Origin: Escherichia coli
GTDB lineage: Bacteria; Pseudomonadota; Gammaproteobacteria; Enterobacterales; Enterobacteriaceae
Strand: one strand, 5' to 3'
Assembly: GCF_044324875.1 (NCBI RefSeq)
Contig: NZ_CP172188.1
DNA: 64,000 bases
Part shown: positions 9,531-18,342 of the stretch, piece by piece
Layout: every line of letters starts with the position of its first letter
Numbering within the stretch: position 1 is the first letter of the stretch
Made by a program: the position numbers and the translations under genes
Notes under the pieces: generated by a model
Databases searched by the model: none
Told to the model about the DNA's origin: nothing
Seen by the model: only the letters and a program-made list of their open reading frames with translations

Positions 9531-10286
9531 TTAACGCGTTTTTTCGCTGCTTTCCACTACCGGGGGATTTTTCCTCAGTGACTCTCCCTGAAGGACCACT
9601 CGGTGTGAGTTATGTACCAGTCTGTCCAGGATGGCATCTGCTGTTGTTGGGTTCTCCATCAGACCATGCCATTTATCTACCGGGAACTGGCTTACCACTA
9701 TCGTGCTGCTTTGTCCGTAACGATCCTCTATGAGCTCCAGAAGGTCATTACACTGGGCGTTACTTAACTGTTCCAGCCCCAGATCGTCCAGGATTAGAAC
9801 CTGTATTTTTTGCAACTGTTTCAGATATTTCAGCCAGCTGCCATCAACACGTCCCTGAGCCAGTTGTTCCAGTAATCGCCCGGTTCTACAGTACCGGACG
9901 CTGTGTTTCTGTCGACATGCCTGTTCGCCCAGCGCATTGGCTATCCAGCTCTTGCCACATCCTGTCGGACCGGTTATCAGCAGGTTTTTCCTGTGGGTTA
10001 TGTAGTGGCCGTTCAGCAGTTCTCTCATCTGTTCAGCCCGCAGACCTCTTGAGGCCGGATAGCGCAGCCCTTCCGGTGTTGCCTGGTATTTCAGGCCGGC
10101 ATTTTTTCTCAACCGTGCCACACGGCTGTTTTCCCTGCTCAGAAGCTCGTCATCAACCAGCAGCGTCAGCCTTTCCTCGAACGACAGTTCGTCGTAGGTC
10201 TGAGGCGTTTCCCGCTGCCGTATCAGGCTCCCGGCCATCGCCGGGAGTTTCAGTTGGGTCAGTTTGTTTAACAGGTTATCACTCAT
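9531..10286 (-). CDS. istB: IS21 helper ATPase IstB
   Basis: Walker A GPTGCGKS, DnaC-like; ORF 9531..10529 but the start matching family length is ATG at 10286 (MSDNLLNKLTQLKLP). Confidence 0.85.
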   Translation of the reverse strand: MSDNLLNKLTQLKLPAMAGSLIRQRETPQTYDELSFEERLTLLVDDELLSRENSRVARLRKNAGLKYQATPEGLRYPASRGLRAEQMRELLNGHYITHRKNLLITGPTGCGKSWIANALGEQACRQKHSVRYCRTGRLLEQLAQGRVDGSWLKYLKQLQKIQVLILDDLGLEQLSNAQCNDLLELIEDRYGQSSTIVVSQFPVDKWHGLMENPTTADAILDRLVHNSHRVVLQGESLRKNPPVVESSEKTR

Positions 10287-10302
10287 ACTGTTGTTCCTTC
10301 TG

Positions 10303-11838
10303 TCAGTGGTAGTAGCCCGGACCACGCAGGTTTTCATGCTCTGAAGCATATGCCGGATGTTGTTCGCCCTGGCGGGATAATGGAAGCTCCAGGTTCTCCC
10401 GATGGTGACGCAGCAGATTGTCGATAAAGCGTCTGTCAGGGGCGTTATAGTGCAGGGCAACGTAACAGGCCTTTTCCAGCCGTTCCGGGCCGTATTTTTT
10501 CTGAAGTGCCAGCAGCCCCAGAACTGCACGATAAGCCAGTTCCGGATGGGGTTTTGCCTTCAGCATGGATTCAACCACCCGGCCTGTGGACGGGCCCGTA
10601 CGTTTTCCCTGCTCGATCAGGCGTTCCGGTGTCCATGTCCCGTGCTGCCGGTGGCGCTCTGGCATGTGAAGCGGATTGGTTGTGTGTTTATATTCATGTG
10701 TGCTGCGCGGATGTTGCGCCACACACTGCCCCTTGTGCCAGAGCTGTACCACCGACTGCCCCGCCTTCAGTGACAGACGCTGACCGACCAGTTCGTGTGG
10801 AACGGAGTACCAGTGACGGGCATATTCAACGTGGTAGTCAGGGCCAACCTTCACAGCTTTGTATTCCGTGTATTCATAAGGTGCCAGAGGCAGCGGAGAG
10901 AGTGCTGGCGCATCCAGTATGCGGAAGCGTTCTGCACGGGTTTGATTGCCGTACCCCTTCATTGGCCGGTTATTCATGTCTGTCAGTAACTCCCTAAGGC
11001 GCGCATTCAGCGCCCTGAGCGTGTGGAAGGTTTCATTACGGATGCGGGCAAGAAGCCATCGTTCAACGATGAGGACGCCGTTTTCTGCTTTTGGTTTATC
11101 TTTAGGTTTGCGTGGTCGGGCCGGGATGATAACCGTGCCATAGTGCTCAGCCAGTGCCTGATAACTGTCGTTGATGACAGGCTCATATCGATCGGCCTTT
11201 TTCACTGCGCTTCTGAGGTTATCGGGGATGAGCAGCTTCGGTACGCCGCCCAGGAAGGTCAGGCAACGGCTGTGGGCATTTAACCATGACATCATGTCCT
11301 GACCTTCGCACGCTTCAACGTAGGTATAGTTGGACGCCCCCATTACGGCCACGAAGATTGCCACGCGGCGTATCTCACCGGTGTCCGGATTAATAACAGG
11401 AACCGTAGGACCACAGAAGTCGATAAAAAGCTTTTCGCCGGCACGATGCTCCTGGCGCATGGAGAGACGTCGCGTTTTTTTCCACTCCCGGTAGCAACGG
11501 CAGAAGTGCGAGTATCCCATCGCTTTGTTACCCGCCTGTGCCTTGTATTCCATCCACAACAGTTGCCGCGTCACACCTGGTTTTCTCATTTCCGTATCGA
11601 AGTACAACATGTCAGGCATTACAAGCTCTGATGCAAAGGTGTCTTTGGGCGGAAAAATGAGTTTCTCCAGCGTGTCATGGGATATATCAGCAGGTAATGG
11701 CCATGACAGAGAAGAGGCTTTGAAGCGGGCAAGAACCTCAAAAACGGTTGAGGCGCTGATGTGTAACGTCAGTCCGATACAACGGTTAGTCAGCTTCTTG
11801 TCGAACTTGAGCTGAAGGATCTTAAAACAGGTTTCCAT
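10303..11838 (-). CDS. istA: IS21 transposase IstA
   Basis: DDE transposase with N-terminal HTH; ORF 10303..11949, likely start ATG at 11838 (METCFKIL). Confidence 0.8.
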   Translation of the reverse strand: METCFKILQLKFDKKLTNRCIGLTLHISASTVFEVLARFKASSLSWPLPADISHDTLEKLIFPPKDTFASELVMPDMLYFDTEMRKPGVTRQLLWMEYKAQAGNKAMGYSHFCRCYREWKKTRRLSMRQEHRAGEKLFIDFCGPTVPVINPDTGEIRRVAIFVAVMGASNYTYVEACEGQDMMSWLNAHSRCLTFLGGVPKLLIPDNLRSAVKKADRYEPVINDSYQALAEHYGTVIIPARPRKPKDKPKAENGVLIVERWLLARIRNETFHTLRALNARLRELLTDMNNRPMKGYGNQTRAERFRILDAPALSPLPLAPYEYTEYKAVKVGPDYHVEYARHWYSVPHELVGQRLSLKAGQSVVQLWHKGQCVAQHPRSTHEYKHTTNPLHMPERHRQHGTWTPERLIEQGKRTGPSTGRVVESMLKAKPHPELAYRAVLGLLALQKKYGPERLEKACYVALHYNAPDRRFIDNLLRHHRENLELPLSRQGEQHPAYASEHENLRGPGYYH

Positions 11839-12228
11839 AGTGCTCCTGGATTTTCTCTTTCTGGACATTGACGTCTCCACTGGTTTAAACACGGCAATGG
11901 AGACTGTGGTGAAAAGAGTTAATTCCCGGAGTGACTGGCAGGATGCCAATCAATGATCGGAAGCATGCCAAATCGTGATCGATTGTGATGCCAAACTGTG
12001 ATCGGAGATGGATGCCAAATCATGATCGATTCGAATGCCAAACTGCGATCGATTCAGATGCCATTTTGCAGCCAAATTTCTGTCAAAAAATAAAATCCAC
12101 AAAAAGTGGTTGACACTATTTTGGAAATCACAAACTGCACATAATCCATCGCGCTAACGGCTCCCGTTGAAGGTTCTTTTGACGATTAACTTTCAGCCGA
12201 AGCGCGGTAGGGAGTCATAACGCCAAAG

Positions 12229-12256
12229 CAGGCCGCCATGTGCGGCCTTTTTTTGT
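12229..12256 (+). terminator. rho-independent terminator
   Basis: ggccgc-catgt-gcggcc hairpin followed by a run of seven T. Confidence 0.55.
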
Positions 12257-12281
12257 ATCCGTCATCCGTGGAGGAAGGACA

Positions 12282-12935
12282 ATGGAAAAGATCGCAATAT
12301 TCAGCCTGACCACCAGCAAGCCTCAAATGCTCACTGCAATACTGAAAGACGGTGCTCTCATTATTAACGAAGTAAAACCCCTTCCCGCGTCAGCATTGGA
12401 GCAAAAGCAAAAAATTCCTCCAGCTATAGCAGCCCTGCGGAAAAGCAAATTTAAGGTACTGGTAGACGAAATTACGCCAACGATCTCCGCTGGCACCGGA
12501 GCAAGCCAGGTTACTCTCAAGACCCGTCATGCCGATGGCAGAGCAGCAATCATCGTCGGGATGGAAAGATACAGAGAGTTAAAACTCCAGAAGCTATTAT
12601 CCCTGCCGCAAAATAACAAAGGTGCTTTCGAAATCCCTGACTCCATCGTTGACACCGAATACAACGGTAACGGAGAAGAAGTCTACCGGGTGAACTGGCA
12701 GGATATCAGGCCGGAACATATTCTGATGGTCCTGTGTTGCTACGCGACCGTATACCACAACGTTGCCAGTGCAGATTACGTAGAGCAGATGACCGGCACA
12801 GTCGAGAAAGAGCAAAAAACAGGCATACTCGCTTCGTTCCTGTCCATTATTGGGCATGAAAAAGTTGAAGCAGGCACCTCCCAGCCAAAGTCACTGGCTG
12901 GGAAAGAAGTTGATGAAGATACCGTGATACTTTGA
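12282..12935 (+). CDS. hypothetical protein (217 aa)
   Basis: ATG at 12282 with GGAGGAAGG RBS (ORF track begins at GTG 12240); no recognisable family. Confidence 0.5.
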   Translation: MEKIAIFSLTTSKPQMLTAILKDGALIINEVKPLPASALEQKQKIPPAIAALRKSKFKVLVDEITPTISAGTGASQVTLKTRHADGRAAIIVGMERYRELKLQKLLSLPQNNKGAFEIPDSIVDTEYNGNGEEVYRVNWQDIRPEHILMVLCCYATVYHNVASADYVEQMTGTVEKEQKTGILASFLSIIGHEKVEAGTSQPKSLAGKEVDEDTVIL

Positions 12936-13272
12936 TCACATTAGTAGCTTTGTTAACTCCCTCAATACCAGGTAGAAGAGTAACAAAAACACTGACGTGG
13001 ATACCTGCTGAGTTAAAGAAGCACTAATGAATTTATTCAATAAATCAATCAGCTTATTAAAAATATTCATCTTTTCGAATCCATTCGATCGGTAAATAAC
13101 ACCCAGCTCACTATCGAGCTGGTCCACGCCTTAAGATTAATGAAAGTCACTTGTTGACAGTCAATAAATTCCAGGGTGGCGAAAAAACTCTGTCTATACG
13201 GATAGTGCTTGCATTTTACTCTTTCTGCGTGTAGCGTATATACACAGGTTGCACGCACGAATGGAATTATTT

Positions 13273-13553
13273 TGATTAAGTCATTTCGCCATAAAGGGCT
13301 TGAACGCTTTTTCAAGACAGGTTCAACCGCAGGCATTCAGGCCAAACATGCGGTTAAGCTACGCATTCAATTGACTGCGCTTAATACAGCTAAACGCCCG
13401 GACGATATGTCTGCGCCTGGATGGGAATTGCACCCTCTAAAGGGGGCGGACCTTAAAGGTCACTGGGCAATATCGGTAAACGGTAACTGGCGACTTACCT
13501 TCCGATTTGAAGGAGAAGACGCAATTCTAGTTGACTATCAGGATTATCATTGA
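13273..13553 (+). CDS. higB: HigB-type toxin (plasmid maintenance killer protein family)
   Basis: (M)[13 protein letters not shown]...[40 protein letters not shown] matches this toxin family; family-typical start is TTG 13273 (ORF track ATG 13209). Confidence 0.75.
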
Positions 13554-13561
13554 GGAACACT

Positions 13562-13843
13562 ATGAGTCGTATGCATAATCCCGCGCATCCAGGCGCGGTT
13601 CTTCGTGAATATTTGGGAGACATGTCAGTCACAGACGCCGCTGCGGCATTAGGCATTACTCGCACGGCGCTTTCCCGAATTCTGAATGAAAAAGCAGGTA
13701 TATCTGCTGATATGGCACTTCGTCTGGAGTCCGCTCTTGGAACCAGTGCCGAAATGTGGACCGGTATGCAATCCCAGTATGAGCTTTGGGTTGCTTCGCA
13801 AACCACTCGCCCAAACATCCGTCCATTATTTTTCCACGCATAA
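13562..13843 (+). CDS. higA: HigA-type antitoxin (XRE helix-turn-helix)
   Basis: HTH region [42 protein letters not shown] directly after the toxin; ATG 13562 with GAGGAA RBS. Confidence 0.75.
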
Positions 13844-13935: not shown

Positions 13936-14265
13936 ATGGGCTATAGCAGACTCGACGATAGGTACATTGAAGACGATATTTTTCGTGCGCTGTTTCACCA
14001 GGAAATGATTAAGCGGGTATCGGAGTATCACTCTGATAATTTCCAGTACACGATAAAGATTGATGAAGTATATCGTTCAGACCTTGCAGCCTACAGGGCG
14101 TATGGCAATGCAGATTTGCGCTGGGTATTCCGGGTGCTGGTGGGCCATGAGTCAGAAATGGAAGAAATGCCCGCCGGGACCACGTTAACTCTTCCTGATG
14201 TGGCATGGCTGAGGAATAAGATCCGTGATTACGCGAGCGCGGAACCGGAGATAGAAAATGCCTGA
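13936..14265 (+). CDS. hypothetical protein (109 aa)
   Basis: ORF whose stop overlaps the start of the next gene (operon). Confidence 0.45.
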   Translation: MGYSRLDDRYIEDDIFRALFHQEMIKRVSEYHSDNFQYTIKIDEVYRSDLAAYRAYGNADLRWVFRVLVGHESEMEEMPAGTTLTLPDVAWLRNKIRDYASAEPEIENA

Positions 14266-15448
14266 TTTCCTGAAAAACCAGGACGGGCGCTATATCACTG
14301 ACGGCCTGTCCTCTAAGGACTTCACGCGTTTATTCGACCTTATCAGGAAAGAACAAACCCGTAAGCGCCGGCAAGCTCACCGGACGCTGACGCCAGGTAG
14401 ACTGAGGAACAAATCCGCCGAAGATATTCTCAAGTTAGGGAAGAAAAAAGGCGGCACGTTCTTCACGCGAGACGACCTGAAAGGTTTCGAAAAGCTACGG
14501 AGTAAAACGCGCGAAAAATATGACAGCAAGACGGCTGGCATCACATACGCCCAGCTGGTGGCATCCAGCCAGGCAATCGATATTAAGCGTGCAAATAACG
14601 CCGTGGATGACGGATCTGGTATCAAAAGAGCTACACCCGTATCTCTTCGCCACAATGTGATTAATATCCGCGTAGAAGCATCGGATATATCCGTCCACCA
14701 GCACCATATCGTCCGGATACGCTTTGAAGAATGGGATCAGATGGTTGATGATATCGCAGAAGACGATAAATCAGCTCTCAAAATCACTAAATCACTGTGC
14801 GCCGGGCGAGTGTCTTTCGATTGTGACTGTGGTCGTCATCAATACTGGTATCGTTACATCGCCACTGCGGGTAACTTTGCCCTGGCACCGCCAAAAGAAT
14901 ACGCCTATCCAAAAGTTCGCAACCCGAAGCTGCAAGGCGTCGCCTGTAAACACGTGATCCACTCAATGACGCGGTTACAGTCCGCCAGTTGGCAAATGAG
15001 TATTGCTCGTGCGCTACAAAAGGCTGCAACGCAAATTGCATTTGGTGACGATCGCCGCCGTACAACCAAACACTTCTCAAAAGAAGACGAGAAGGAGTTT
15101 AATCGCAATCGTAGCAGTAAAACAAACGTTGAAGCCGCCAAACGCGAATGGAGGCTCTATCAGAAGCGCCAGGCAGCTTTAAGTACAAAACTGGCAAAGG
15201 ACAACGGCAATATCGACAAGCTACGTGACCAATTGACCAGGGCCAGAAAGTTGTCAGACGCACAGAAAAAACGGGCGGCTGCAAAAGAAGCGGCCTTGCA
15301 ACGTGAGAAACAGAAAAATAAGGAACTTCAGCAACGCCTTGCCGATCAGTTCGCACTGAAGAAGCAGGCGTTCATTGATGCGCTTGTCATGGCTGGAACA
15401 CCACCAGCACAAGCTGAAAAAATGTTCATGGAGTACATAAAAAATTAA
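14258..15448 (+). CDS. SWIM zinc-finger-containing protein with basic coiled-coil C-terminus (396 aa)
   Basis: CxC...CxH pattern (FDCDCGRHQYW...GVACKHVIH) consistent with a SWIM finger; K/R/Q-rich coiled-coil tail. Confidence 0.5.
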   Translation: MPDFLKNQDGRYITDGLSSKDFTRLFDLIRKEQTRKRRQAHRTLTPGRLRNKSAEDILKLGKKKGGTFFTRDDLKGFEKLRSKTREKYDSKTAGITYAQLVASSQAIDIKRANNAVDDGSGIKRATPVSLRHNVINIRVEASDISVHQHHIVRIRFEEWDQMVDDIAEDDKSALKITKSLCAGRVSFDCDCGRHQYWYRYIATAGNFALAPPKEYAYPKVRNPKLQGVACKHVIHSMTRLQSASWQMSIARALQKAATQIAFGDDRRRTTKHFSKEDEKEFNRNRSSKTNVEAAKREWRLYQKRQAALSTKLAKDNGNIDKLRDQLTRARKLSDAQKKRAAAKEAALQREKQKNKELQQRLADQFALKKQAFIDALVMAGTPPAQAEKMFMEYIKN

Positions 15449-15459
15449 CAAAGGTGGGT

Positions 15460-16200
15460 TTATCCCACCTTTTTATTAGCATCGCATTTAATTTTTTCAA
15501 GTGAATCAGAAAGCTTTGAGAGAATCTCCTCAAGTGTCTCCCTGTCATTTGTATCACCCGAACGAAAAGATGAGTTTTTCACGGCAGTAAAAAATTCATA
15601 AAAATCATCCAACGAATTTAAGCTCTCACCTTTCTCTCTATATAATTTAATAACATGACGGATATCGCTATCCACACATTCAATCTGTTCCCTAACTTCT
15701 TCTACCTTTCTTTTTAATGATTCATGTTCTTCTTTTTCTTTTTCAAGACGCTCTTCAACGTCTTTCCGTTTCTTAGTAAGATCATTAATGTCTCTGTTAA
15801 TTTTTCTTACTTGTTCTTTTTTGTCTTCAATTTTATCTATCTCTCTCAATTTAGCGTATATTGTGCCAGTCACCATAGAAATTAGTAAAGTTAACATTGG
15901 GGCTAATATTGAAGCCACAACACCATAAATAAAAGGCAAGACAAAATGAGCTACGAATGAGGGTACAAAAACATTCCCAAATAATGGAATCTTTTCCCCA
16001 ACAAACACCATAGATAATGTATACATAACATCATCTTTTGACTTCAACAATATAAATATATCTCGCCAGTTAGAAATTAAAAATGAAATAAAAATGTAGG
16101 CAAAAACCTTATTAAACAACTTATCTTTTACAGCATCTTCTATCAGATTTTGGGCGGATGATTTTTCATTTTCCTTTTCTATTGATGAATCAGTGCTCAT
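15460..16200 (-). CDS. membrane-anchored coiled-coil protein of unknown function (246 aa)
   Basis: Very AT-rich gene; N-terminal hydrophobic helices then a long charged coiled-coil (KEQVRKINRDINDLTKKRKDVEERLEKEKEEHESLKRK). Confidence 0.5.
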   Translation of the reverse strand: MSTDSSIEKENEKSSAQNLIEDAVKDKLFNKVFAYIFISFLISNWRDIFILLKSKDDVMYTLSMVFVGEKIPLFGNVFVPSFVAHFVLPFIYGVVASILAPMLTLLISMVTGTIYAKLREIDKIEDKKEQVRKINRDINDLTKKRKDVEERLEKEKEEHESLKRKVEEVREQIECVDSDIRHVIKLYREKGESLNSLDDFYEFFTAVKNSSFRSGDTNDRETLEEILSKLSDSLEKIKCDANKKVG

Positions 16201-16260
16201 ATAATCACCAAATATTTAAACCTTGATTTTATGTAAAATCGGCCCTCCAGACTGCCAAAC

Positions 16261-16641
16261 TTAAACACCAACTAGGCTTTCAAGAGGAATGCCAAACTGG
16301 GAATGTAAACGACGAATCATAGGTAACGTTAAATTTCGTGTCCCATTTAGCACTTCGTAAACACGATTTGACTTACCAATCGCCGGTTCCAGATCCTTCA
16401 CGGTCAACCCTTGCTATTCCATACGGGATTTAATGGCTTCAATAGGTGATGGCGGCTCAATTGGGTAATGTTTTTTCTCGTACTCCTCAATGAGAAGACA
16501 CATAACCTCCAAGAAATTACCTTCCGGGGTGTTCGTTTCCGGTTCGTTATCGAACATCGGTTCTACCGCACGCAGTGCGGCCTCATAATCTTGTTCTGTA
16601 CGGATAGTTTTAATGTTCATTAATTCCAAAGGAAAGCCCAC
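16261..16641 (-). pseudogene. HigA-like HTH antitoxin/regulator interrupted by an in-frame amber codon
   Basis: ORF 16414..16641 ends at TAG (16414-16416); same frame continues QGLTVKDLEPAIGKSNRVYEVLNGTRNLTLPMIRRLHSQFGIPLESLVGV to TAA at 16261 (hand-translated). Confidence 0.55.
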
Positions 16642-16676
16642 TTGTTAAGTGGGCTTTTTGTATGTGTTTTACTATA

Positions 16677-17015
16677 TCAGGCTGCTTTTTTATTCAGGTT
16701 CCGCTGAGAAATAAATTTTTCAGCAGTATTGATACGACTTAACTCTTCCTGAACGCGCATGTCATTTTCGACTTCCCACAGGTCTACTGCGGTCTGGAGA
16801 TTAATCCAAAAATCTACAGAAGTATCGAATGCTTTTGCCAGGCGATATGCCATATCCATCGTTAGCTTACGATTATTATTAACAAGAGCACTTACGGTGT
16901 TACGATGAACATGAAGTATTTCTGCTAACTCGTTGATCTTCAGCTCTAACGGCTCCAGGTATTCGTACAGCAGGATATCACCTACGGTCGTCGGTTTTCT
17001 GGTTGCCTGTTTCAT
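16677..17015 (-). CDS. higA: HigA-type antitoxin (HTH), second module
   Basis: HTH LAEILHVHRNTVSALVNNNRKLTMDMAYRLAKAF; immediately downstream of the toxin gene. Confidence 0.75.
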   Translation of the reverse strand: MKQATRKPTTVGDILLYEYLEPLELKINELAEILHVHRNTVSALVNNNRKLTMDMAYRLAKAFDTSVDFWINLQTAVDLWEVENDMRVQEELSRINTAEKFISQRNLNKKAA

Positions 17016-17085
17016 TTTTTGCCCTTACTAGCGTGCGTATTAAGTGGACTCTGGTCAGAACCCGGTCCGTAACCGGGTATCTGTT

Positions 17086-17388
17086 TTAGTATTTGTGAGG
17101 GTCGAGATACAAGTCCTCGGCCTTTCCGTTAACCCACTTAAAAATTAACCTATATTGCTTATTCACCCTTACTGATGAATAGCCATTTAGCTTCCCTGAC
17201 AGTTCCTCATACCGATTACCTGGTGGTGATCTTAAATCCTTACAGGTAGTTGCGGCATTGATAATGTCCAACTTCCGTGACAATGTCATATGAATATCAG
17301 GAGGTATCTTTCTATGTGGTGTTGAAAATTCAAAAAAATCATCAAGCCACGCATCCCTGAAATCCTTTATGTTAATTTTTTTGGTCAT
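17086..17388 (-). CDS. higB: HigB-type toxin (killer protein family), second module
   Basis: NRYEELSGKLNGYSSVRVNKQYRLIFKW...LYLDPHKY fits the toxin family; palindromic operator-like gcgcactgttgcactgtgcgc upstream. Confidence 0.75.
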   Translation of the reverse strand: MTKKINIKDFRDAWLDDFFEFSTPHRKIPPDIHMTLSRKLDIINAATTCKDLRSPPGNRYEELSGKLNGYSSVRVNKQYRLIFKWVNGKAEDLYLDPHKY

Positions 17389-17550
17389 TAGTCATTTGAT
17401 CCTCCGTGATGATTACCGAATGCCATAACTATAGCGCACTGTTGCACTGTGCGCAAGTGCATTTTATGAATTCCCCCTCCTTCATCCAAAATCACAATCT
17501 CCCGAAAATCTTCCTTTCGATACCTGACAGATCGACCTTTGAGGATGCTT

Positions 17551-18342
17551 ATGGGCCGTTTTGACGAATGGTTTGCTGACGATGCAAACCTGGCAAGTAA
17601 GGAGTCAGAACATGACAGCACGCAGAGAGAAACGCCAGCACCGATTGAAGCGAATGCAGGAGGCGCGCCGGAACATGGCAATACCGGTTCGGATTCATTC
17701 AGCATTCTGGAAGAGCAACCCGCCGCCAAAGCTGATAGCCATGATAATTTTGCTGATAGCAACGGTGGCCTTACTTCGGATGCTGGCGAATCAGATATAG
17801 CCATACTTCCATCTTCCCTGGCTGGCAGAGAACCGACTCCACAGTTAAAAGCACGCTATAACGGGCATAAAGCCTTTAACGACCAAATCCGCGCAGACTG
17901 GATGCTGATTATTGAATCCAGCCCAGACGCGTTTCAGGCTCTCTTATATCGACCAGATGTTGGCACATATGGGGTAGTCAGCGACGAAACAGGAGAAGAG
18001 TCATTCACCGAACTGGATAACAACCAACGCGAACTGACTTACCAGGAACCTGAAATCGTTTATGTGCTGGATAACCCTGACGGGCGTGACTCTTTCCATG
18101 CGATTGACGCAGACGGTGAGCAGGATGGCTTAACCGATGATGTTCTGATTCTGCGTATTGCAGCAAATAACGTCCCCGTCGGCTCAATTCTTGAATGGAA
18201 TGAAGAGATGGTAAACGGCGTAGCGCGCCGCTGGTGGTACGTGCACCGTATTTTTAGCTACGGCACACAGCATGTTGGTTCGCTTTACTACTGCATACCT
18301 GCCAGGAATTTTGATACGACTCAAAACGGAGTGATCGAATGA
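17551..18342 (+). CDS. acidic phage structural/baseplate-module protein (264 aa)
   Basis: ATG 17551 with TGAGG RBS; first gene of four translationally coupled genes ending in a spike-like protein. Confidence 0.45.
   Translation: MGRFDEWFADDANLASKESEHDSTQRETPAPIEANAGGAPEHGNTGSDSFSILEEQPAAKADSHDNFADSNGGLTSDAGESDIAILPSSLAGREPTPQLKARYNGHKAFNDQIRADWMLIIESSPDAFQALLYRPDVGTYGVVSDETGEESFTELDNNQRELTYQEPEIVYVLDNPDGRDSFHAIDADGEQDGLTDDVLILRIAANNVPVGSILEWNEEMVNGVARRWWYVHRIFSYGTQHVGSLYYCIPARNFDTTQNGVIE

Follow-up and report, generated by a model that had tools for sequence, protein, structure and literature searches.

Results

A minus-strand gene among the tail genes of a D6-like phage-plasmid

The window analysed here, a stretch of 64,000 nt from Escherichia coli, is a D6-like phage-plasmid of the P1 family. 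On its minus strand, at positions 15460 to 16200, lies an open reading frame of 246 codons (hereafter the ORF) that starts with ATG, ends with TAA and encodes a protein of 246 aa; the sequence on either side shares 96.9% identity with Escherichia phage D6. The locus comprises the following genes and features.

12240–12935, plus strand: mat
13209–13843, plus strand: second higB-higA pair, with mat before it and gene 26 after it; not in D6, present in some relatives; context, outside the cassette of the ORF
13936–15448, plus strand: tail genes 26 and 25 together
14258–15448, plus strand: tail protein, homologue of P1 gene 25; conserved left flank of the hotspot
15450–15472, minus strand: terminator hairpin (GGTGGG-ataaa-CCCACC, then a run of T) that overlaps the ORF's stop codon; tail gene 25 ends towards it from the opposite direction
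15460–16200, minus strand: the ORF
15463–15630, minus strand: C-terminal helical domain of the ORF product (two helices), residues 191–246
15631–15852, minus strand: coiled coil of the ORF product, residues 117–190
15853–16119, minus strand: conserved membrane domain of the ORF product, residues 28–116, with invariant N44, P89 and P101
16120–16200, minus strand: acidic hydrophilic N-tail of the ORF product, residues 1–27
16201–16260, minus strand: short leader with a Shine-Dalgarno-like GGTGA before the ATG
16261–16620, minus strand: HigA-family gene of the 119-aa D6 orf72 type (HigA119); in-frame TAG at 16414–16416, which is CAG in D6
16631–16659, no strand assigned: stable inverted repeat (−15.7 kcal/mol, z −4.5) at the junction of the complete higBA and the orphan HigA cassettes
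16677–17015, minus strand: HigA antitoxin (TIGR02607, 102 bits)
17086–17388, minus strand: HigB/RelE-type toxin (PHROG 3066; annotated PF05015, HigB-like_toxin, in homologous loci)
17539–18342, plus strand: tail protein, homologue of P1 gene 7; conserved right flank of the hotspot

The ORF is part of a small minus-strand island wedged among plus-strand tail genes, with gene 25 on one side and gene 7 on the other, the latter being followed by genes 24, 6 and 5 in the plus-strand series that runs from 17539 onward. A preliminary description had placed the gene between two higBA loci and next to unknown genes. The first placement is loosely right, as there are pairs at 13209–13843 on the plus strand and at 16677–17388 on the minus strand, but tail genes 26 and 25 intervene on one side and a broken HigA-like gene on the other. 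The second does not hold, the neighbours being tail gene 25 and the HigA-family gene.

The TAG codon that breaks HigA119 is not a sequencing error, because the viral contig L014, which differs elsewhere and is without the second higBA pair, carries the same amber-truncated form together with an identical allele of the ORF. In the window the broken HigA119, whose cognate PF09907-type HigB is missing there, is an orphan antitoxin or regulator.

An atypical, AT-rich composition had been noticed previously and was confirmed here. The GC content of the ORF is 0.320 (GC3 0.27), compared with a window mean of 0.470 (sd 0.039), making it the lowest of all 741-nt stretches in the 64 kb (z −3.84; 0.14% of such stretches are as low).

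Architecture and topology of the encoded protein

The ORF product is predicted to be small, to reside in the inner membrane and to carry a coiled-coil stalk of roughly 10 nm that ends in a small helical domain. Two hydrophobic segments, at approximately residues 28–52 and 71–116 (Kyte-Doolittle means over 19 residues of up to 2.1), precede a coiled coil of roughly 75 residues, in which a single heptad register continues without a break from ~121 to ~200 and charged residues account for 61% of positions 117–190. In the AlphaFold model, which was built on an alignment of 27 sequences and has a mean pLDDT of 74.9, residues 81–189 form one continuous helix, with pLDDT values >90 at residues 130–170. 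Hydropathy, heptad register and structural model all bear out the membrane anchor and long charged coiled coil of the preliminary description.

Counts of Lys plus Arg across the 27 family members are lowest in the loop that separates the hydrophobic segments (2.6), compared with 3.5 in the N-terminal flank and 4.2 in the C-terminal flank. Read as topology by the positive-inside rule, these counts favour an N-in/C-in orientation with a cytoplasmic stalk. On this charge count, both termini and the stalk are most likely cytoplasmic, although the margin is modest and the first hydrophobic helix is followed by a conserved KSK.

Homologues and database searches

The counterpart of the ORF in D6 is orf73 (ASR76396.1), which is annotated as 'hypothetical protein', occupies the same position, shows the same architecture and shares 37.6% identity across 99% of the length. 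Both match PHROG 8191, a group annotated as of unknown function (ORF: E = 9.7e-75, residues 1–244 against profile positions 1–242 of 242; orf73: 6e-115). Orf73 and PHROG 8191 are true homologues of the ORF with the same placement, flanked by gene 25 and the HigA genes on the strand that opposes the tail genes. They carry hypothetical or unknown-function annotation only, as do PHROGs 4780, 13369, 35327 and 22645, which are linked to PHROG 8191 through distant members, and membership gives no mechanism for the ORF. Existing catalogues list the gene as a hypothetical protein (D6 orf73, PHROG 8191), and it is part of no catalogued defence system; in the literature on D6, phage-plasmids and P2 hotspots, no mention of the gene or its family was found.

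The family is small, with 12 clusters at 90% identity among 5.8 billion proteins. A profile of the membrane domain retrieved 34 representative clusters among 1.84 billion proteins, all of 200–270 aa and with the same layout. Within the membrane part, N44, P89 and P101 are invariant across the representatives and S39, S54 and G93 nearly so, while a C-terminal motif, Y..I...DF..FL..V, recurs in the family. A full-length profile search added further relatives from Citrobacter and Salmonella, and no names or domains were gained.

The preliminary description had found no family assignable by eye, and as far as function is concerned this was the outcome of the searches as well: Pfam, NCBIfam and PADLOC returned coiled-coil noise only. 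To this noise belong the Pfam matches Laminin_II and FlaC_arch (ORF protein and 27 family members), the NCBIfam matches to SMC, Rad50 and EzrA, which reflect the coiled coil only and lie far below the cut-offs, and the PADLOC matches of the full-length ORF protein to LmuB, JetC and PbeC. Weak full-length PADLOC matches were also obtained for the ORF protein to SAVED_TM (E = 0.0013) and for the family member P0019 to 2TM (E = 4e-4); this lead was dropped, as ten isolated membrane domains remained unmatched at E values up to 0.5. When the membrane domain was searched against PDB profiles, BONZAI 1, a C2-domain protein (E = 2e-4), was rejected as spurious for its incompatible fold class, and all other matches had E > 0.5. 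Foldseek searches against AFDB50, BFVD and PDB returned only the family itself and generic long helices. Nor did the searches reveal clear homology to any housekeeping or structural protein.

Divergent alleles at a conserved site

We compared 15 intact alleles of the ORF from D6-like elements. The surrounding genes gp25, gp26, gp7, gp24 and HigA119 are 96–100% identical across these elements, whereas the ORF alleles fall into at least five groups that are 34–47% identical to each other, with the allele of the window in a different group from that of D6. Between groups, the N-terminal membrane half is 50–66% identical and the coiled-coil/C-terminal half 18–25%. The GC content of all alleles is between 0.29 and 0.36. 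In the nucleotide alignment of D6 and the window, identity is ~96% until roughly 40 nt past the HigA stop codon, collapses through the whole ORF cassette and rises again where gene 25 ends.

The sequences indicate that the alleles have been exchanged by recombination and have not diverged in place. Between the window and L023, dS is 0.37 in the membrane part and 0.06 at the C-terminus, and this unevenness along the gene points to intragenic mosaicism. A recombination hotspot at which deeply divergent alleles sit in near-identical backbones fits the notion of exclusion or abortive-infection cargo.

Related alleles yielded dN/dS values of 0.2–0.34 overall, 0.08–0.22 in the membrane domain and 0.2–0.77 in the coiled coil, with dS between alleles ranging from 0.25 to above 1. 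The ORF is a real gene under purifying selection, which is strongest in the membrane domain. Because dN/dS is low and dS reaches these values, the gene is functional and its alleles are old; a pseudogene or chance ORF is ruled out by the purifying selection together with the conserved architecture. dN/dS values >1 were sought as a sign of positive selection, and none was clear, with the exception of a 27-codon segment in one pair.

The gene has also been lost. In L022 the ORF is deleted, and the HigA hairpin arm is fused, through a shared CCGCCTTTGTTG, to sequence that follows the terminator of an L027-type ORF; this empty site looks like a secondary deletion. Truncated or frameshifted copies occur in L016, L019 and L020.

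These observations bear on a possible role in lysis or morphogenesis, in which the product would act like a spanin or holin and its coiled coil would lie in the periplasm. The inner-membrane spanin subunit combines a membrane anchor with a coiled coil, an arrangement that the ORF product recalls, and the gene sits among tail genes. However, the gene runs against the late genes, has its own terminator, is AT-rich and allele-swapped, and is missing from some complete elements. Unlike a spanin gene, it is located antisense in a tail cluster and not in a lysis cassette with a gene for an outer-membrane lipoprotein; there is no embedded or adjacent lipoprotein ORF, the sole overlapping ORF on the same strand having no lipobox, and no Pfam or PHROG lysis family was matched. 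We regard a role of this kind as very improbable.

Leader, terminator and expression signals

The terminator hairpin of the ORF has a predicted free energy of −14.1 kcal/mol (z −3.65), and every allele of the D6-like elements possesses its own, differing terminator hairpin at the 3′ end. A moron that runs against the tail genes and brings its own terminator is an arrangement that fits exclusion or abortive-infection cargo. At the 5′ side, a stable hairpin with a U run precedes most D6-like alleles (−13.7 to −16.6 kcal/mol, z −2.9 to −4.6). In the window this upstream hairpin was lost through substitutions (−7.9 kcal/mol, z −0.3), leaving a degraded relic of hairpin and U run at 16235–16260 (GCGGTC-tggat-GACCGC-TTTT), which is intact in D6 and in L003-type elements.

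The promoter scan gave a number of sites not above chance and none in the 60-nt leader of the ORF, and the Rfam search gave no significant match. Since a hairpin precedes most alleles and no promoter was found in the leader, the ORF may be transcribed by read-through from upstream. Furthermore, as its strand opposes the tail operons and matches that of the toxin-antitoxin genes of the plasmid, we infer that the gene is probably expressed in the lysogen.

The neighbouring toxin-antitoxin genes

Two kinds of cassette were distinguished by the genes that precede the ORF. In type I, the order is HigB (PF09907), HigA119 and ORF (L003, L016, L021, L023, L025, L026 and L028, with L004 as a variant carrying a 139-aa HigA). 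In type II, it is HigB (PF05015), HigA112, hairpin, HigA119 and ORF (D6, the window, L002, L015, L017–L020, L024, L027 and L029). The type I HigB matches PD-Lambda-2_A of PADLOC (3e-42), and the type I HigA119 matches the first 119 of 402 positions of PD-Lambda-2_B (7e-43).

The ORF could accordingly be viewed as the distal effector of a HigBA operon, a third component gated by the upstream toxin-antitoxin module in a tripartite system such as PD-lambda-2 or the toxin-antitoxin-chaperone systems. It follows a same-strand HigA-family gene at a distance of 14–70 nt in every D6-like element, the type I upstream genes have the PADLOC matches just given, a Citrobacter homologue follows TacA/TacT, and the leader, without an evident promoter and behind a terminator-like hairpin in most alleles, is compatible with read-through from upstream. 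Against this view, homologues occur alone in P2-like prophages and islands, and HigA119 remains 96–99% identical while the ORF drops to 35–45%, so that the two do not co-vary. Each is also found intact where the other is lost: the ORF beside a HigA119 broken by an amber codon (the window and L014) or by a frameshift (L017), and HigA119 in L022, where the ORF is deleted. In addition, the cognate PF09907 HigB is absent from the window, and the ORF matches neither PD-Lambda-2_C nor a SecB chaperone. We consider a gated third component quite unlikely.

PD-lambda-2 is a defence system of a HigB-like protein, a HigA-peptidase and a P4-antitoxin-like protein (Vassallo et al. 2022, PMC9519451), and the likeness consists in the three-gene arrangement of HigB and HigA plus an extra gene on mobile elements. 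Its component A is present in L003 and L004 but not in the window, where the only HigB is of the PF05015 type and without a PADLOC match; component B is represented by a HigA119 without the peptidase domain, which covers 119 of 402 profile positions in intact relatives and is cut by the amber codon in the window; and component C is matched by neither the ORF nor D6 orf73. With neither a peptidase domain nor component C, and in the window no component A either, the locus is not PD-lambda-2. In toxin-antitoxin-chaperone systems (CmdTAC, HigBAC), which are found in variable regions of temperate phages, the toxin-antitoxin pair is followed by a third gene (10.1101/2024.10.15.618418, PMC9519451). 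That gene encodes a SecB-like chaperone, whereas the ORF encodes a membrane coiled coil, with no SecB in Pfam scans of 27 members, and its family also occurs without any toxin-antitoxin pair. The ORF also lacks the obligate cognate antitoxin of a type II toxin.

The ORF is an autonomous moron with no obligate toxin-antitoxin partner, since HigA119 shows no co-variation with it, each gene is intact where the other is lost, and homologues stand alone.

Distribution in mobile genetic elements

The locus was found in 98 of 5426 complete E. coli genomes (~2%), always on plasmids of ~90–97 kb. An allele of the ORF is detectable by its 5′ half in 66 of these 98 genomes, and an allele ≥80% identical to that of the window is present in only 2 of the 98. 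The locus is also found on plasmids of Salmonella and Shigella, and on Citrobacter phage-plasmids of ~97 kb a homologue follows the TacA/TacT toxin-antitoxin pair. Distant homologues stand alone in P2-like prophages, either antisense between tail genes S and V or after ogr at the prophage end, and they occur in genomic islands as well. All occurrences of the family were on mobile genetic elements, namely phage-plasmids, prophages and genomic islands. Among the neighbours of distant members there were no known defence genes except toxin-antitoxin pairs and one WYL regulator. Homologues at moron sites of P2-like prophages are in keeping with exclusion or abortive-infection cargo.

A membrane protein with an accessory role outside defence could account for part of this picture, for example a lysogenic-conversion envelope factor, a tether between plasmid-prophage and membrane, or a modulator of the element's lysis-lysogeny or injection. 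The gene has neither defence homology nor an association with defence islands, within E. coli it resides on phage-plasmids only, and the conservation of the whole architecture including the C-terminal motif is compatible with the binding of a conserved cellular partner. On the other hand, such extreme allelic turnover at a fixed site would be unusual for a conserved host target, the presence in integrated P2-like prophages shows that the gene is not plasmid-specific, and its frequent loss or truncation (L016, L019, L020, L022) indicates that it is dispensable for the element. A role outside defence is possible, though we hold it doubtful.

Discussion

With its fixed site, divergent and exchanged alleles, losses and AT-rich cargo, the locus behaves like a defence or exclusion hotspot. 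As a tentative reading, to which we assign a probability of roughly one in three, the ORF product may be a lysogen-expressed inner-membrane anti-phage protein of the abortive-infection type. The cassette of leader, ORF and own terminator is a self-contained moron. The two membrane helices with their conserved polar and proline residues would constitute an effector hairpin, which the coiled coil would oligomerise and which would perturb the cytoplasmic membrane or block a membrane step of infection by other phages, while the fast-diverging stalk and end domain would set the specificity.

Another reading, related to the above, is classical superinfection exclusion, in which an inner-membrane protein blocks genome delivery by incoming phages and leaves the cell unharmed. 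Superinfection-exclusion proteins are typically stand-alone membrane proteins of prophages. P22 SieA, HK97 gp15 and T4 Imm are small membrane proteins without enzymatic domains that are carried as morons and act alone, and the gene of HK97 gp15 lies within tail genes. The ORF likewise encodes a small membrane protein without an enzymatic domain, is placed as an antisense moron within a tail-gene cluster and needs no partner gene, and its allele diversity in identical backbones would fit specificity for differing invaders. However, there is no detectable sequence relationship to these three proteins, to which the ORF product adds a coiled coil of ~75 residues and a conserved C-terminal domain, and no PHROG annotated as superinfection exclusion was matched. 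The membrane helices and the short loop are the most conserved parts and the stalk, predicted to be cytoplasmic, the most variable, where an incoming tail or ejection protein would not be met; moreover, the adjoining tail genes do not co-vary with the ORF. We consider pure entry exclusion unlikely and slightly favour an abortive-infection mode of action.

Searches with PADLOC, PHROG and Foldseek gave no sequence or fold similarity of the ORF product to a known defence, abortive-infection or superinfection-exclusion protein. The order of a two-helix membrane hairpin and subsequent helical sequence resembles the CBASS 2TM/SAVED_TM effectors and SLATT proteins. Unlike these, none of the 27 family members has a SLATT match in Pfam and the membrane domains alone are unmatched; unlike in CBASS, there is no cyclase, sensor or SAVED partner by the ORF, the neighbours being tail and toxin-antitoxin genes.

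A more far-reaching version of the proposed anti-phage function, which we regard as a long shot, would integrate the recurrent neighbourhood. The family would then comprise stand-alone membrane effectors that docked repeatedly 3′ of autoregulated toxin-antitoxin operons (two kinds of HigBA, and TacAT), behind an attenuating hairpin, and de-repression of the toxin-antitoxin promoter during infection would switch on membrane disruption. If true, this would constitute a toxin-antitoxin-gated membrane effector with interchangeable specificity alleles.

D6-like phage-plasmids, carried by roughly 2% of complete E. coli genomes, are also found in Salmonella and Shigella lineages of clinical interest. 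The hotspot is worth testing, because almost no recognised defence systems were reported on D6-like elements in defence-finder surveys (10.1101/2025.09.12.675607). If the ORF does not act in phage exclusion, it still represents a well-defined, selected membrane protein family that is restricted to mobile elements and needs a function. If it does, a new family of single-gene membrane proteins would join the known repertoire, the purpose of a conserved hotspot in P1/D6-like and P2-like elements would be explained, and the divergent alleles would provide a natural series for the mapping of specificity.

Decay and loss in the cassette

The orf72-type HigA gene upstream of the membrane-protein ORF (15460-16200, minus strand) is interrupted in the window by an in-frame TAG at 16414-16416, the position at which the phage-plasmid D6 carries CAG. 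The same 75-aa HigA fragment is found in the viral contig L014, paired with an identical ORF allele, and the orf72-type gene of the related locus L017 is broken by an independent frameshift. As the cognate PF09907 HigB is absent from all three cassettes with a broken copy, this antitoxin, now an orphan, seems to be in decay. In D6 and in L003-type elements, a hairpin followed by a U run lies between HigA119 and the membrane-protein gene (-13.7 to -16.6 kcal/mol); in the window, the corresponding hairpin (16235-16260) has been ruined by substitutions (-7.9 kcal/mol, z -0.3), and its loss may allow more read-through into the ORF.

The membrane-protein gene itself is missing from an empty site in L022 (NZ_CP098907.1, 2656-2689), where the HigA hairpin arm is fused to the sequence 3′ of an L027-type ORF terminator via the common CCGCCTTTGTTG, a junction that suggests a deletion between the two hairpins. 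Furthermore, truncated or frameshifted copies occur in other D6-like elements (L016, 6001-6444; L019, 5934-6714; L020, 3811-4440), showing that the gene is dispensable for the element. Synonymous divergence between the window gene and its counterpart in L023 (2661-3395) is uneven, at 0.37 in the membrane part versus 0.06 in the last 56 codons, which indicates intragenic recombination in addition to cassette exchange.

Other differences from D6 in the window

Two further intervals of the window differ from D6:

13209-13843, second higB-higA pair (PHROG 3066 toxin, TIGR02607 antitoxin), between mat and tail gene 26
9531-11949, two minus-strand genes with a GC content of ~0.56, with matches to a transposase (PHROG 1157, 548 aa) and to a DnaC-like helper (PHROG 50, 332 aa)

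The higB-higA pair is present in the related loci L002, L015 and L023 and missing from D6 and L014, which makes its location the second small site of variation in the tail region that also holds the ORF. The transposase and helper genes occupy an interval, from the simB-like gene to mat, that measures only ~280 nt in D6, and look like an IS21-type insertion.

Distant homologues in other elements

P2-like prophages also carry distant homologues of the ORF, at two moron sites: between the tail genes S and V, where the homologue lies on the opposite strand beside an unknown 247-aa gene (PHROG 10503), and directly past ogr at the prophage end, next to fieF-pfkA (L005-L007, 5001-5651; L011, 5001-5816). 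In Citrobacter phage-plasmids of ~97 kb (L030-L032, 6001-6714; plasmids NZ_CP145667.1 and NZ_CP056338.1), a distant homologue of 237 aa is located immediately 3′ of a toxin-antitoxin pair, TacA/TacT (DUF1778/GNAT). This gives a second case, independent of the first, in which a toxin-antitoxin operon has a member of the family at its 3′ end.
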